Shown: positions 1,658-14,827 of the stretch, piece after piece | Layout: every line of letters starts with the position of its first letter | Position numbering within the stretch: position 1 is the first letter of the stretch | Virus record (IMG/VR): IMGVR_UViG_2671180460_000010 | Location: 1 to 19,577 of that record | From: a virus | Taxonomy: Duplodnaviria; Heunggongvirae; Uroviricota; Caudoviricetes | Direction: 5' to 3' (one strand) | DNA length: 19,577 nt | Made by a program: the position numbers and the translations under genes | Notes under the pieces: generated by a model | Databases searched by the model: none | What the model was told of the DNA's origin: nothing | What the model saw: the letters and a program-made list of their open reading frames with translations, nothing else

Positions 1658-4114
1658 TTAAAAATCAGCCTGATTCGGGATCAGTTTTTGCCAGATAGCT
1701 GAAACGTATTTTGCCTGGTGGCGGGCATCATCCAGTGCATTATGGCGCTCACCTTCGAATGGAATAGCCGTTCTGGCATCGAAGTCTATAGCTTTCCCCA
1801 GCTCAACGATTGTGCGTACATCGCGATCGTTGTAGTAACGCCACGGGCAGGGGATCCCCTGCCGTTCGTATGAACGGCGCAAAATCGTGTTGTCGAAGTT
1901 GGCTCCATTTCCCCAGACCTGAACAAAAAATTCACCGGAGTTTTCGTCGATAAATTCTCGCAATTGTAACAGTGCATCATCTAACGGGATTTCATCGGTC
2001 ATAATGGCAGATTGCGCTTCGCGTGATTGCTTCAGCCACCATTTAATGGTGTCCCGATCAATGACTCCGCCAGCAGTTTCCAGATCGATAGTCTTACTAA
2101 ATTCCGGTCCCATATCTCCGGTTTGCGGATCGAAAAATATTGCACCTATTGAGATAATCGGGGCATCAGGATTTTTTCCCATGGTTTCGAGGTCGATCAT
2201 TAGATGGTCACACGTCCTGCTGGTGGATGTGATTTCGTGATGACCGTTCACCTTAATTGAGTGATCTGCCGCCTCGCCAGTTTCATTATCGCTGGCGTGG
2301 TCCTGAGCGCTGCCAGCATTCTCCTTGTGTGGATGTTCAGCGCCTTCCATTTCCTCCGGATCATTTTCCTGAACTTCAACCTGATTCTCTTCATCGAATG
2401 TTTCCAGGTATGTTGCGTCGCCCATCACCGCGCCACAATCAGGGAAGTTGCCGCTGCCGGTCTGACCGCAGACGGTGCAAGCTTTTTCCGGTTCCTGTTG
2501 CGCTGCTGGTTCATGTTGTTTCGTTTCTGGCTCGTTTTGTAACGCATTTGGGCTGTTTTGTTCCGCTTTCTGGTCGTTCTGTTCCGTTTCTTGCTGGTTC
2601 TGATTCACTGAATCGCGGGTTTCAATCCCCTTCACCCATTTCGGATCATTCGGGTCGCTAATCCCTGCAACAAATTCACCGCGAGAGGCCGCAAGCAACT
2701 TATCGGCGTCAGGCTGGCCGATATTGGCTGCCTGCATAATTTTGTTTACTTCGTCAGCGGTAACTTTCACCTGATTAACTGGATCTACCTGTTCCTGAGT
2801 ATCCAGCGATTGCGTGTCCTGGCGATGTTCAGTTGTATCCGGTTCCATTGTTTCAGCCGTTGCCTGTTCATCTGCCAGTACGCCAGACGGTTGCGGTTTT
2901 TCTTCATCATTTTTTTCTTCTTCTGTTTCTTGCCCGGCAGCCAGCTCGCGGTTAACTTCTTCCAGGATATCTTTTTCCGGTGTATGTCGTGCAGCAGTGA
3001 GAGTTTCCTTGCTGGGGTTCTCGTGATCAGTCTCCGTTAAGTAGGCGTTGATATACCCCTGAAGGCGTCCCGGGTAATGATAAAATTCAGGGTGTGCGCT
3101 CCGGATAAGCGCAAAAATAGCGGCGCGGGAATAATCCAGGATACCCGGGATTGCGCGAAGTGCTGCGGACCATTCTTTGAACGGGCTTTCTTTCTTCCGG
3201 ACGACTTCTTTTGCGCGACGATAAACGCTGCCCGGAATTTCATAAATATTAAAATCCATCGGAAGTGTGGCCGCTGCAATCTCCACATCCAGCGTATCGA
3301 AGGTGTGTACTAAATTAGGATTGCGATCGGTTTTGTTCCCTCCACCGGCATTAGCACCGGAAGCCGTGCGGGTAATGCGTGAAACACGATTTCCTTTCAT
3401 CCACTCTTTTGTCAGCAGACCGCGATCGGTGTAGTCAGCGCCCAGGTATGCTTCGAAAAAAGCAGTCATCAGTCCCAGGTCTGAATTACCAGGATTAGGG
3501 AAAACTTTGTCCGTGTCACGAACCAGTTTGTGGAGATCGCGAATTTCCAGCGGTTCGAGTTGCGCTGCTTTATTTGAGATGGCCAGAGCGGTAACGGCGG
3601 GAAGTTTTTCATCCTGTGCGTTATGTAATGCGCGCAGTTCGTCCCGCGAAACGTGTGTGATCGGTTTTTCGCTGCCGTGCTGTGCCAGCCATCGAACAGG
3701 CAGAATCTGACCTGAAACCGGCAGGAGCATGTTCTCCTCAATCTCCGTCATGTCTTCGCCGTTGACGTTGGTATTGTCAGTGCTGGCTGGTTTGTCCTGC
3801 GCAGAGTGAGAGGTCTCAATAAATACCATTGTTATACCATCTTCCCCGCCTTTTTCGTATCGATTGCAGAATTCGGTATCAAACACGCCTTCCGGAGGAA
3901 GGTCATTCACAATGGGTAAATGGACGCGAACAGGTTTTTTAAAATCCTCTTCGTCAAATCCGGCATCGTCCATTGCGACAACACCGCGTGATATTGCAAC
4001 CGATAATTTTTTTGCTGTGCGCCAGTAAAAACCGCCTTTAATCCCAAGGCGTTTTCTGACTTTGTCATTTTTGGCTTCGTAATATAGTGCAATTTCTTCT
4101 TTATCAGCGCTCAT
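1658..4114 (-). CDS. Large phage protein with C-terminal DnaQ-like DEDDh 3'-5' exonuclease domain (often annotated exodeoxyribonuclease VIII-like); long acidic/Gln-rich central linker
   Basis: 818-aa ORF with GAGG RBS 7 nt upstream of the ATG at 4114. The C-terminal ~180 aa carry Exo I (MIDLETMG), Exo II ([12 protein letters not shown]) and Exo III (HNALDDARH) motifs. The central ~250 aa are low-complexity E/Q/D/T-rich. Position matches the recombination-gene slot of lambdoid phages. Confidence 0.75.
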
Positions 4115-4191: not shown

Positions 4192-4395
4192 TTACGGTGC
4201 TGTTTTAAGTCCTGCCGGGACTTCGTTATTATCCATGCGAATAACTTTATCGACCGGATAACAGTTACCGGGAATTTTCTGTTCATCTGCGGCAGCCATG
4301 CATTCTTTCATTGAGCTGTATACGCCAGTAACCATGTCAACTGGTTCACCGGAAACAAGAAAAACCGTCAGAACAAGTGCAAATGTGGTATTCAT
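4192..4395 (-). CDS. Small hypothetical protein with N-terminal signal-peptide-like hydrophobic segment
   Basis: Internal Met start (MNTTFALVLTVFLVSGEP...) preceded by AGGA. Its ATG overlaps the stop of the upstream gene in an ATGA arrangement (4392..4395), suggesting translational coupling. 67 aa with 3 Cys. Confidence 0.45.
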   Translation of the reverse strand: MNTTFALVLTVFLVSGEPVDMVTGVYSSMKECMAAADEQKIPGNCYPVDKVIRMDNNEVPAGLKTAP

Positions 4396-4580
4396 TGCCA
4401 GTATCCTTTTTGCATCAGGCGTGAACGGGCCATCATTGAAACAATGCAAACCTTATTTAATGAATCCGGCTCATGCTTTATCTGGTTAATGGCATCCTCA
4501 ATAAAAGTTTTATCGCCAGTGATAACGCCAATTTCAAAACGAGTTTCAGGCGTAGTGGAATTGAGTAATAACGTTTCCAT
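4392..4580 (-). CDS. Small hypothetical protein (62 aa)
   Basis: Start METLLLNSTTPETRFEIG with GAGGA RBS upstream; ATGA overlap with the next gene. One arm of a 19-bp inverted repeat lies just upstream of its RBS. Confidence 0.45.
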   Translation of the reverse strand: METLLLNSTTPETRFEIGVITGDKTFIEDAINQIKHEPDSLNKVCIVSMMARSRLMQKGYWQ

Positions 4581-5081
4581 TATCGCGTCCTCAACAATGA
4601 ATTTTGTGATGCGGTGCCTGGTGCCTCCAGGTGACGTTAACCAGTTAACAATTAACGCCGGATACAGGGAACCCATAAACACCCGATACGGGGGAACTAA
4701 TCGCTTTTTAACTGTTCCGCGTGCGCTGAGCCGCATTCACCGCATCACAAAATTCACTTTAAAAATGGCGGACATCAGCCAGCAATTAAACTGATGCCGC
4801 CAAAGGTCAATACTCAACATGGGTTGTTGCAGCGGGGTTGTCACTCAGGCGTATGGTCAACCTGACAACCCGGTGCTACCAATGGGGGTAAGGATAACCC
4901 CGCCATACTTACCGCCGCGCCATTTCGCGGATTGCCACAACCGGAAGCGCACGGTCGAAGAAATCTAACGACAAGCCTTCTAAGGAAAAGAAACCTTCGC
5001 TGTGCGCTTTCGTGTTGTGTGCCTGCTTTTAACCACATCAGGCGAGGTGGTTTCCGTCATTCCCCAACGACAAGAAATTTG

Positions 5082-5118: not shown

Positions 5119-5637
5119 ATGCTATCTGGAATAACTTCATCAATAACGGCAATTAAAGTCTCGATTGATTTATTACAGGTAATACTTGATGCAAAAAGCC
5201 AATCTGAACGTGAAAAGGCTGTCTACGAAATGCGTCGCCAACTGGCAGACTTACAAATACAGAACGCAGAGCTAGCGAAAACGCTCGCGCTTCAGTACGA
5301 GGAAATACTCTTGCTTAAGCAAAAATGTCATGAAATTGACGAGCGTAATCGAAAACTTGAATGCTATACGATACACAAAACTGGTTTTGGGCATTTTGTC
5401 TATGCTTTCAGGAACAGCCTCGACGAAGAAGACACATGTTTTCACTATGCCTGTCCCAATTGCTATCAGCATGGTGTAATAGCAATACTTCAACCTGTTG
5501 AAATTGGTGAGCATGATAAGTTCCATATTTCTAAATGCCTGAAATGTGATTCGCGCTTTAAATTTGAACGCAATGATGACTATATACCGCCCCCATCTGA
5601 AGAAGAGATAGGTAGAGCATTGAGCAGCAATCCGTAG
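5119..5637 (+). CDS. Hypothetical coiled-coil protein with C-terminal CxxC...CxxC zinc-ribbon-like motif (172 aa)
   Basis: Start at internal Met (MLSGITSS) with GAGAG RBS. Predicted heptad-rich central segment (QLADLQIQNAELAKTLALQYEEILLLKQKCHEIDERNRKLE). C-terminus has CPNC...(22 aa)...CLKC. Opposite strand to all neighbours, with its own promoter. Confidence 0.6.
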   Translation: MLSGITSSITAIKVSIDLLQVILDAKSQSEREKAVYEMRRQLADLQIQNAELAKTLALQYEEILLLKQKCHEIDERNRKLECYTIHKTGFGHFVYAFRNSLDEEDTCFHYACPNCYQHGVIAILQPVEIGEHDKFHISKCLKCDSRFKFERNDDYIPPPSEEEIGRALSSNP

Positions 5638-5799
5638 GTTATTGCTGTTGTGGATATCCAGATTGTTAAAGAGCATGCCGGAAGGTTATCCGTGTCCGGC
5701 GCACGACCACACGTAGCAGCGTGTTGGTCTCCATTTTTAATTCACCCCTTAATGGAGGATAAAATAATCGTGGTGCTGGTCGGCTCGGTCCCGCAGGTG

Positions 5800-6447
5800 T
5801 TACCCTTTAAACCAGTCAATCCAGAGCGGATAGTGTTCAGCATAAATATAGCTATACACATCCAGGTTGTATTTGCGGTCTGTCCTTAGCAGGTCGCAAA
5901 TACAGGCCGCAGCTTCCAGGGCAGCAGCTTTGTTGCTGAATAACCATGTAGCAACATTCCGGCGATTATCTGTATCCCACTCTTTTGTGAGGGCTGACAC
6001 CACGAAGGAGCCGTTGGTGTTGCCATCAAATACTTCCGTTTCCAGATTTTTAAGTAATGCCTGGTGAATTTTTGCCAGGTATTCAGTCGGAATTTCGCCA
6101 CGAATTCGGATAAGGTTGTCATAAACAAACATGTTCCCCGCATATGGCGATTTTTCTTTCTTTTGTTCACTGGCAGGCTGGTCAATTTCGTCTTCGGTTG
6201 GTTTCGTATTGATGTTTTGCGTTATCGTTTCTGCAATGGGCTTTGCTTTATTTTCTACACAATGATTGTTTGTGAACGAATCTGAATACAGTCCGGTAAA
6301 AGAATTGCGGACATGATTTGATAAATTTCTGATGAACACTTTATCTACTAATATCATTGGGTTCCGCGCCAGTTGCGAGCGAATCACATCAGCGGCCATT
6401 TCCTGTATTGAAATTGGTAAATCTTTAAATTCCATAGTCAACCTCAT
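5800..6447 (-). CDS. Hypothetical protein (215 aa), second gene of the leftward early operon
   Basis: Long ORF with GAGG RBS. Start is 6447 (MRLT) or 6435 (MEFKDL). No motif I can assign to a known family. Confidence 0.6.
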   Translation of the reverse strand: MRLTMEFKDLPISIQEMAADVIRSQLARNPMILVDKVFIRNLSNHVRNSFTGLYSDSFTNNHCVENKAKPIAETITQNINTKPTEDEIDQPASEQKKEKSPYAGNMFVYDNLIRIRGEIPTEYLAKIHQALLKNLETEVFDGNTNGSFVVSALTKEWDTDNRRNVATWLFSNKAAALEAAACICDLLRTDRKYNLDVYSYIYAEHYPLWIDWFKG

Positions 6448-6459
6448 CAGTCGGTGGTT

Positions 6460-6666
6460 TTAAATCACTCGCGAAACGTTTAATGCCGCGCTTTTTGCCA
6501 GAGCGGTAATATCCTGCGTCACTGACGCCAGTGTTTCAGAGAGGCGCTCTTTGTGATCAGTGGCCTGCTTCAGGTCATTAATGGCGCGTATCTTCCCGCG
6601 CATCCACTCATAAAGTTCATCATCGGTATAGCCTGGCGCGATGATGACGGGTTCTCGTTTCTGCAT
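6460..6666 (-). CDS. Hypothetical protein (68 aa), first gene downstream of the pL-like promoter
   Basis: ORF 12 nt upstream of the 215-aa gene on the same strand, about 180 nt downstream of a strong leftward promoter. Not Arg-rich, so not an obvious lambda N-type antiterminator. Confidence 0.5.
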   Translation of the reverse strand: MQKREPVIIAPGYTDDELYEWMRGKIRAINDLKQATDHKERLSETLASVTQDITALAKSAALNVSRVI

Positions 6667-6854
6667 GCTGATTCCTCTCAGTGCTGTTTCCCCTTAACGC
6701 CGGGGTAGCGGAACAAAAACCTGCTGCATAGTTAAAGTTGAACCCTGCCGTCATGTTCATACGCCTCGGGCTGGCTACTTAACCCCTGACCACTGCCTGG
6801 TAACTCGAAGTATTGCCCTGCGTTCTGTGGGATGGGGTGGGTTGGCATGGGAAA

Positions 6855-6898
6855 ACTATAGGTAATGCCTAATTATTTGTCAATAGGCTATGCCTAAT
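6855..6898 (-). promoter_or_regulatory. pL-like early-left promoter with overlapping operator half-sites (OL-like)
   Basis: On the minus strand: TTGACA (plus coords 6878..6883), 17-nt spacer, TATAGT (6855..6860). The -35 is embedded in ATTAGGCatagcctATT, and further GCCTAAT half-sites occur at about 6864..6876 and 6913..6925. Confidence 0.55.
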
Positions 6899-6991
6899 GA
6901 TTTAAGGGCAACCTAATAGGTGATGGTGTGTGGGAGAGGTAGTAGGAGTTAACTAACGGGATCTAGGAATTTCCCGTCGGACCATATAAGT

Positions 6992-7468
6992 TTAAGTACC
7001 TGTCTTGGTGATATTCTGGCTTTTCCGTTTTGATTCTTGATTTTTCAAATAGTTACCTACCTTCATTTCCATTGCGGCAATGTAGGCGCGAACGTCATGA
7101 TCAACCCAACTAGGCTCCGTAGCATTTCCAGATAAGAGGAAAGCTACAATTGCTCTTTTTTCATCAGAGGCGGCTTGATAAAGGCTGTTTATGTCTAAGA
7201 GTTCACTTTTTGTATCTGAAGTGGATGGGGTTGGTATGGGGTATTCGTTAAGCCCCCAATGCTCTGGACCAACCACATCAGAAAAGAAACGCCATAGTTC
7301 TGGAAGTTTGTCTTTACTTATCGAACCTTTCTTAATCCAGTCATGGATTGATGGTGGTTGGACTTTGAAATGACGTGCGATCTCCGCCTTTGATTTGACG
7401 GCCCCTGATGCAATTTTTTTGTTAATGGCCTGCTCTATCGCTCGGCCTAAGTCTTTACCACTAAGCAT
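6992..7468 (-). CDS. Prophage repressor, HTH (XRE-like) family, RacR-like; no C-terminal S24 peptidase domain evident
   Basis: 158-aa ORF with GGAGA RBS. N-terminal HTH-like segment (KSKAEIARHFKVQPPSIHDWIKKG). Sits between mirrored promoters/operators and is divergent from a Cro-like gene. Size and arrangement match the Rac racR-ydaS-ydaT layout. Confidence 0.7.
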   Translation of the reverse strand: MLSGKDLGRAIEQAINKKIASGAVKSKAEIARHFKVQPPSIHDWIKKGSISKDKLPELWRFFSDVVGPEHWGLNEYPIPTPSTSDTKSELLDINSLYQAASDEKRAIVAFLLSGNATEPSWVDHDVRAYIAAMEMKVGNYLKNQESKRKSQNITKTGT

Positions 7469-7520
7469 TGCTTAATAGTCTCCTATGCGTATCGCGTTAG
7501 GCAATCCCTATCTTTAATGT

Positions 7521-7570
7521 ATTAGGCATAGCCTATTGACAATGATATTAGGCGCAGCCTAATATCATTG
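7521..7570 (+). promoter_or_regulatory. pR-like early-right promoter with operator palindromes (OR-like)
   Basis: -35 TTGACA (7536..7541), 18-nt spacer, -10 TAATAT (7560..7565). A 31-bp perfect palindrome CAATGATATTAGGC-gca-GCCTAATATCATTG (7540..7570) overlaps the promoter. A second site ATTAGGCatagcctATTGACAA (7521..7542) is the exact reverse complement of 6877..6898. Confidence 0.6.
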
Positions 7571-14122: not shown

Positions 14123-14344
14123 GAAGGAAACAAACAGAAACAACAATTGCCGTTATCTGTTGCCACCAATGACAAGTAAACGTATCTCAGGCGAGCGCAT
14201 TGCGCCGTTCTGACGCGGATACATTAGCCTGGGCAGAAGGTTCTGGCAATAAAAAATAGCGTTTTCTTATCGGTGTCGGTAAGATTGTTGCGGGTGCTTG
14301 AGGCTGTCTGCCTCGGGCATGCCACTGTAAGGCAGACAGAGAAA

Positions 14345-14447
14345 AGCCCCAGTTAACATCACGCGTCCTGCAAGACGCTTAACATTAATCTGAGGCTCAA
14401 TCCATGCTGAACACATGTAGGTTAGCCTCTTACGTGCCGAAAGGCAA
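14345..14447 (-). ncRNA. Putative Sok-like antisense RNA and its promoter (type I antitoxin)
   Basis: Minus-strand promoter: -35 TTGCCT (plus coords 14442..14447), 17-nt spacer, -10 TAACCT (14419..14424). The architecture mirrors the R1 sok promoter, which sits antisense to the hok leader. The 3' end is not defined. Confidence 0.35.
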
Positions 14448-14460
14448 GGAGAAGCAGGCT

Positions 14461-14616
14461 ATGAAGCAGCAAAAGGCGATGTTAATCGCCCTGATCGTCA
14501 TCTGTTTAACCGTCATAGTGACGGCACTGGTAACGAGGAAAGACCTCTGCGAGGTACGAATCCGAACCGGCCAGACGGAGGTCGCTGTCTTCACAGCTTA
14601 CGAATCTGAGGAGTAA
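14461..14616 (+). CDS. hok: Hok/Gef-family type I toxin (51 aa)
   Basis: MKQQKAMLIALIVICLTVIVTALVTRKDLCEVRIRTGQTEVAVFTAYESEE is a near-match to the Hok/Gef family (HokD/RelF-like). The leader GGTGCTTGAGGCTGTCTGCC...AAGGAGAAG parallels the hok mRNA fold-back elements. The in-frame upstream extension from 14404 may correspond to a mok-like translational coupling frame. Confidence 0.85.
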   Translation: MKQQKAMLIALIVICLTVIVTALVTRKDLCEVRIRTGQTEVAVFTAYESEE

Positions 14617-14765: not shown

Positions 14766-14827
14766 GACTAATTTTGTATTGACTTAATTTTTGTTAAAGA
14801 ACAGGACGGAGAAGTAAGGGTACACCA

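Follow-up and report, generated by a model that had tools for sequence, protein, structure and literature searches.

What are the two genes that stand first in the leftward operon of this phage genome, in the slot that N occupies in lambda, and do they belong together? The DNA in question, hereafter the window, is a stretch of 19,577 nucleotides (IMG/VR record IMGVR_UViG_2671180460_000010, Caudoviricetes). Both genes, here called A and B, are real open reading frames on its minus strand, as an earlier note made from the letters alone had reported: A at 6460-6666 (68 aa) and B in a longest ORF at 5800-6447 (215 aa). The note was also right to see them as the first two genes after a repressor-controlled leftward promoter, in a variable accessory region. 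A and B are independent, optional promoter-proximal cassettes of the dicBF-type early-left operon of a Rac/Qin-family lambdoid prophage. We hold their identity and organisation, as described below, to be very probable; the full explanation, in which cassette identity and operon placing are taken together with a proposed host-modulating role, comes a little short of an even chance.

The window corresponds to the left arm of a lambdoid prophage of E. coli, of the Rac/Qin type. Its left 8 kb represent the integrase-proximal arm of such a prophage, and megablast assigns the region to E. coli. The minus strand of this arm carries an integrase gene (20-1315), an excisionase gene of the DUF1233 type (1336-1587), a gene for a RecE-like exonuclease (1658-4114), a YdfD-like DUF1482 gene (4192-4395; Pfam PF07358, E=4e-23) and dicB (4392-4580, 62 aa; Pfam PF05358, E=3.3e-28; NCBIfam NF049927, 129.6 bits against a cut-off of 100), with the start of the YdfD-like gene overlapping the dicB stop (ATGA). 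The order of the operon, taken from its promoter, is a conserved leader, gene A, gene B, a convergent inserted ORF, a DicF-like sRNA, DicB, the YdfD-like gene, the exonuclease, xis and int. Beyond the repressor gene racR, the genes ydaS and ydaT lie on the plus strand, and a Q-like antiterminator is found further right. A separate observation from the right-hand part of the window is a strong Rfam match to the sok antitoxin RNA (114 bits, 14292-14466, plus strand), indicating a hok/sok-type locus inside the prophage; a boxA-like 13-mer with one mismatch lies near it on the minus strand (14791-14803).

The promoter from which A and B would be transcribed is a PL-like sigma-70 promoter, TTGACA-17-TATAGT, on the minus strand at 6855-6883, agreeing with the consensus at 11 of 12 positions. 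Three operator-like repeats of the type TTAGGC-N3-GCCTAA (6858-6872, 6883-6897 and 6902-6916), 15 bp each and 19-25 bp apart from start to start, overlap this promoter. Beyond racR (6992-7468, minus strand; NCBIfam equivalog NF049929, 246.5 bits, cut-off 200), three more repeats of this type (7497-7562) lie over the rightward promoter. As read from their sequence, the two repeat sets flanking racR are candidate RacR operators in a lambda-like OL/OR layout, and it is this arrangement, together with a promoter on the strand of A and B, that makes the label 'pL-like operon' used in the earlier note a fair one. Since the promoter is overlapped by RacR-type operator repeats and is followed by a conserved leader, control of the A/B operon by RacR is the likely reading. 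A CI-like repressor gene with putative operators at the promoter, here racR with its repeats, and a gene for the DicB cell-division inhibitor are both features of a dicBF-type operon, and A and B are the first coding sequences downstream of the promoter that lies under the RacR-type repeats.

Between promoter and gene A lies a transcribed leader of about 160 nt (6690-6850, minus strand), which begins near the transcription start, extends to the first ribosome-binding site and is C-rich in its 5' part. Of 167 fetched sequences, 151 contain a BLAST match to it, and most of the variants listed reach an identity of about 90% or higher, regardless of the repressor or of the first gene; this is too conserved for a covariation test. 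A put-like antiterminator RNA in the leader was considered and ruled out, as the leader folds less stably than shuffled controls (z=+2.07) and an Rfam scan of it gave no match. No boxA-like match occurs on the operon strand in 6667-6850.

Judged by sequence, the product of gene A (68 aa; 6460-6666, minus strand) is a YdfC-family protein. The PHROG 1744 profile covers residues 1-67 of the 68 (E=3.4e-28), and the product is 59-60% identical, at 100% coverage, to large clusters named 'protein YdfC' (E about 1e-16). To this full-length similarity is added the position of the gene, in the slot between the repressor-controlled promoter and dicF/dicB. In papers of 2016, 2023 and 2024, YdfC still appears among the dicBF operon genes whose function is unknown (PMC5069750, PMC10448788, PMC11551758). 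The earlier statement that A and B have no recognisable family stands for Pfam and NCBIfam, neither of which has a match for either protein, and falls for PHROG, in which A belongs to PHROG 1744/YdfC and B to PHROG 2151, families that are catalogued but uncharacterised.

The first 25 or so residues of the YdfC family are nearly invariant and contain the peptide MQKREPVIIAP.YT.DE.YEWM, with which the product of A (pI 6.55; MQKREPVIIAP at its start) agrees; the C-terminal helix is variable. Gene A, like B, is under some purifying selection, with an overall dN/dS of 0.5-0.8; the value is 0.6-1.3 for residues 26-68 and about 1 in the C-terminal helix for close pairs. The first 25 codons (6592-6666, minus strand) have a dS of 0.07-0.25, against 0.6-0.8 in the remainder of the gene in the more divergent comparisons. 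Such a low value suggests either nucleotide-level constraint or a recombination junction that continues from the leader.

Gene B is a full-length member of PHROG 2151 (E=4e-91), with residues 5-212 of the 215-aa ORF matching profile positions 1-212 of 212. The longest ORF reaches 6447. The most likely start is nevertheless the ATG at 6435, which gives a protein of 211 aa (5800-6435, minus strand) rather than 215, because GAGG is found 6 nt upstream of this ATG, the resulting MEFKDL start is present in all 37 of 37 aligned homologues, and the RefSeq annotation of the gene in strain C5 is 636 nt long; the ATG at 6447 has no Shine-Dalgarno sequence. With the start moved, the spacing between A and B, previously given as 12 nt, becomes 24 nt. 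The protein begins MEFKDLP, has a pI of 5.45 and contains no transmembrane segment. It has 133 close homologues, almost all from Escherichia, a few of them named 'Ybl81' (a literature search for 'ybl81' returned no match), and one E. coli protein cluster is 100% identical to it. DNA encoding its C-terminal domain occurs in 600 of 5,426 complete E. coli genomes (about 11%), O157:H7 strains included. A search of 50,697 phage genomes on deposit gave no full-length copy of the gene.

A three-part architecture for B emerges alike from the alignment, from AlphaFold and from an HMM search that covered 1.8 billion representatives exhaustively. The N-terminal module, residues 1-52 (6280-6435, minus strand), is a two-helix hairpin with helices at residues 8-24 and 32-51. 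It is common to PHROGs 1363, 6937, 9419 and 33007 and to about 50 representative clusters with other C-termini or none, and it also stands alone, as proteins of 60-70 aa. It was found in 74 phage records, many of them from Stx-converting phages, where it is called 'hypothetical' wherever the listed records carry annotation. A polar and acidic linker follows, residues 53-93 (6157-6279, minus strand; GRAVY -1.41, pI 5.1), which is predicted to be disordered (pLDDT <50 for residues 53-94). The C-terminal alpha/beta domain, residues 94-211 (5803-6156, minus strand), is predicted to fold as a b-b-a-b-b-a-b-b sandwich of a generic kind (pLDDT 76, pTM 0.72), and is the most constrained part of B, with a dN/dS of 0.11-0.34.

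Elsewhere, the C-domain is seen only in proteins of P2-like Salmonella prophages and in P0211. The former, of about 220 aa, have the C-domain after a different N-terminal module and are encoded directly after cox, in the early operon; in P0211, an HTH domain is inserted ahead of the C-domain. The distant relatives in Salmonella enterica were located in the int-repressor-cox switch region (L083, 8001-8663; L084 and L085, 8001-8654), and genes for Rv2179c-like and Exonuc_VIII exonucleases occur further downstream of them. Pfam and PHROG scans of ten N-module or C-domain relatives returned families of unknown function only, except for the HTH in P0211. Fold searches of PDB and BFVD matched no characterised protein, anti-defence proteins included, and profile searches (A1, A3, A4, A5) against PDB sequences gave nothing below E=0.05. 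No enzyme family or catalytic fold was matched by A or B in Pfam, NCBIfam, PDB profiles or fold searches. Among PADLOC profiles, gene A has no match, and the best match for B, PDC-S32 (E=0.015, 13.3 bits), is not meaningful.

How A and B are combined with other genes was followed in 79 viral contigs fetched through B and 80 fetched through YdfC, in which all cassettes were mapped; the sampling of loci is biased by the fetching route, and the B-led and YdfC-led directions agree. Across 151 related loci, the order downstream of the leader is always YdfA, YdfB, YdfC, N-module protein, DicB, and any of the first four may be there or missing independently of the others. Most frequent are YdfA-B-DicB (66 loci), the Qin type YdfA-YdfB-YdfC-DicB (about 41), and YdfA-YdfB-YdfC with an N-module protein that has another C-terminus (22). 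In PPompW phages, ydfC follows dicA, and an N-module protein with a different C-terminus stands between ydfC and dicB. The succession of YdfC and full-length B is known only from three viral contigs, the window and a handful of genomes of pig ETEC.

Between B and dicF, the window holds a convergent ORF on the plus strand (5119-5637; 172 aa from its ATG), which is annotated in strain C5, encodes a coiled coil and a CxxC...CxxC motif, and belongs to PHROG 1244, a family of unknown function; Pfam and PADLOC searches gave no match. Among the fetched loci, copies at 99-100% identity are confined to L011, L077 and L086, the last being the locus of strain C5; L010 and L121 have distant relatives (30-35%), and other related loci have unrelated opposite-strand genes in its place. 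Before the 3' end of this ORF, on the operon strand, a 6-bp hairpin, GCCGGA-N12-TCCGGC (5677-5700), is directly followed by a perfect 13-nt rrn-type boxA (5663-5675), the whole at 5663-5700 with the boxA 26 nt from that 3' end. The boxA sequence, TGCTCTTTAACAA, is that of rrn boxA (PMC2724277, Table 1). As an element of about 55 nt, hairpin and boxA recur in 13 fetched loci, in 12 of which the boxA is exact and in one of which it has one mismatch. In the representatives checked, the element lies just upstream of the 3' end of an opposite-strand gene, these genes being of at least three kinds, and it may protect the operon transcript from Rho during its untranslated passage through the inserted gene. 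A minus-strand ORF of 134 aa at 5272-5676 was rejected, its translation having the look of a chance reading frame: its PHROG match is no more than marginal, it lies opposite an ORF that does have a family (5119-5637), and its first codons are the boxA sequence itself.

Further along, a DicF-like sRNA with a terminator-like hairpin (4771-4798) is located at 4766-4812 on the minus strand. The match to RF00039 is divergent and sub-threshold (34.7 bits, E=3.5e-5, against a gathering score of 48), but lies in the expected place upstream of dicB. A sub-threshold match to STnc100 (4561-4777) overlaps it.

What, then, might A and B do? The Qin operon of this type is silent under DicA, fires spontaneously in a subpopulation and is derepressible by the Rem antirepressor, and its DicF and DicB affect the host through cell division, metabolism and phage receptors (PMC5069750, PMC10448788). 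A and B would likewise stay unexpressed in the lysogen, their synthesis starting once the repressor is gone, and we propose that they may be small, soluble proteins that act by binding rather than by catalysis and so adjust the physiology of the host, or a competing phage, soon after induction. Such a role is suggested by analogy with the characterised products of this operon type (DicB, DicF and YdfD), which act on the host. As each module of B occurs with other partners elsewhere, B might be a two-headed tether of two promiscuous modules. The mechanism is offered as a tentative one, well below an even chance. Against it counts the weak constraint on A, whose function could be no more than marginal; co-transcription along the operon, moreover, may be restricted by the convergent ORF and by the DicF terminator.

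The main rival to this host-modulating mechanism is that A, B or both are counter-defence proteins (anti-restriction or anti-abortive-infection), and that their slot is a hotspot of the arms race. Lambdoid early-left regions hold Ral, Gam and Abc, and the operon context implies early expression. The slot is variable, with many alternative C-termini on a constant N-module and several N-module alleles joined to one C-domain, and the helix of A is evolving near-neutrally or diversifying. Nevertheless, the fold searches of PDB and BFVD revealed no likeness to a known anti-defence protein or fold, and what is known of the products of such operons points to cell division and metabolism as their targets, not to defence systems (PMC5069750, PMC10448788). 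We regard a counter-defence role as unlikely, if worth keeping in view.

It is improbable that A, perhaps together with the N-module of B, is an ORF in decay or without function that owes its retention solely to its place in a conserved, recombination-prone junction. The dN/dS of A, both overall and in residues 26-68, would fit such an origin, as would the very low dS of its first 25 codons, suggesting conservation at the nucleotide level, and the many truncated or frameshifted members of the family. However, the full-length ORF of A is kept across alleles that are 40-60% divergent, the invariant peptide of its first residues looks like a binding motif, and the C-domain of B is clearly constrained.

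Poorer still are the prospects of B as an antirepressor, which would hold the switch on the lytic side once PL has fired. B is among the first products after derepression, its distant relatives come directly after cox in P2-like switches, and one relative, P0211, has an HTH domain. Against this, the same N-module allele (96-100% identical) and the same C-domain are found beside at least seven unrelated repressor types, RacR, an S24-like repressor and several XRE proteins of 103-162 aa among them, which makes recognition of a specific repressor unlikely.

That A and B form an obligate two-gene system, be it a toxin-antitoxin, an effector with its chaperone or a two-part anti-defence system, would be consistent with their adjacency, common strand and short gap, and with the presence of some N-module protein immediately downstream of YdfC in 29 of 73 YdfC-selected contigs. 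The distribution of full-length B argues strongly in the other direction. A YdfC-like gene precedes it in only 3 of the 79 B-holding viral contigs (L002, L003 and L015), with YdfA/DUF1391 in its place in most, and B follows YdfC in only one of the 73 YdfC-holding contigs with enough flank, that one being L002 again. B usually comes directly after YdfA or YdfB, and the Qin type has YdfC without any N-module gene. A and B do not show the consistent co-occurrence of an obligate module, and such a system is very unlikely; the co-expressed functional pair that the earlier note had read from their spacing gives way, on the same counts, to a rare combination of cassettes that behave independently in the co-occurrence analysis.

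Least likely of all, and largely refuted by distribution, is that A or B is an N-like processive antiterminator in the lambda N slot. Both are first genes after a PL-like promoter, and their transcript contains a perfect boxA 125 nt beyond the end of B, but neither of these neutral to acidic proteins has an arginine-rich motif or, in Pfam, NCBIfam and PHROG searches, any antiterminator homology (as the earlier note had observed of the motif), no cognate nut site with boxA and boxB accompanies them, the leader being free of boxA-like matches on the operon strand, the downstream boxA tracks neither gene (it occurs with YdfC and no B in L092-L103, and with B and no YdfC in L011 and L077), boxA of the rrn type relies on host Nus factors and can do without a phage N, and the leader is kept in 151 loci while A and B are each absent from most, whereas an essential antiterminator and its site should be found together.

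Returning to A and B as cassettes, we can take the N-module one step further. Its pattern (M-E/K-F-K-D-L-P..Q.IAA..L ... LAR.VR.AF..LY) might define a family of polymorphic effectors, encoded in the early operons of lambdoid phages of enterobacteria, in which a constant adaptor head of about 52 aa would sit on one conserved host or phage hub and interchangeable C-terminal domains would deliver host takeover or counter-defence. This is speculative and rather unlikely; if true, the alpha/beta domain of B, which is without a clear structural relative, would be one such delivered activity.

For annotation, the outcome is that the window carries a Rac/Qin-type dicBF operon in which A is a YdfC-family gene and B a PHROG 2151 gene that starts at 6435. 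More generally, the promoter-proximal region of dicBF-type operons is an ordered array of small, independently swappable cassettes, one family of which is built on a shared N-terminal module. A and B are real but ordinary, being members of catalogued, uncharacterised prophage families in a known operon type and in a rare cassette combination. Nothing points to a new kind of system, and the biological gain is modest. With B-type genes in about 11% of complete E. coli genomes, however, a function, once found, would be widely applicable.

Comparison with known systems places the locus as follows. The early-left region of lambda (N, ral, sieB, cIII, kil, gam) likewise has the first genes of an immunity-controlled leftward operon as mosaic cargo, and the convergent gene of the window is in a sieB-like slot; A and B, however, show no likeness, in sequence or in motif, to lambda N or its neighbours, and the leader of the window has no nut-like boxA. 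The closest relatives of B are the PHROG 2151/'Ybl81' proteins of E. coli prophages, with full-length matches at 64-100% identity and the same three-part architecture. The C-domain of the window is 83-100% identical to theirs, whereas its N-module is a minority allele, about 50% identical to the common one. The counterpart of A is YdfC of Qin, a y-ome protein, with about 60% identity over the full length, the same near-invariant N-terminal 25 residues and the same operon slot, although YdfC has 72 aa where A has 68 and the C-terminal helix has diverged. The operon as a whole most resembles the Qin dicBF operon of E. coli K-12 (ydfA-ydfB-ydfC-dicF-dicB-ydfD-ydfE, repressed by DicA), with which it shares a repressor-controlled leftward promoter and the same conserved leader (PMC5069750, PMC10448788), and then, in the same order, a YdfC-family gene, a putative DicF-like sRNA with its terminator, DicB and a DUF1482/YdfD gene. 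It differs from Qin in having RacR rather than DicA as repressor, in lacking ydfA and ydfB, in a DicF match that is below the Rfam gathering score, and in the addition, between ydfC and dicF, of the 211-aa B, the hairpin with its boxA and the convergent ORF.
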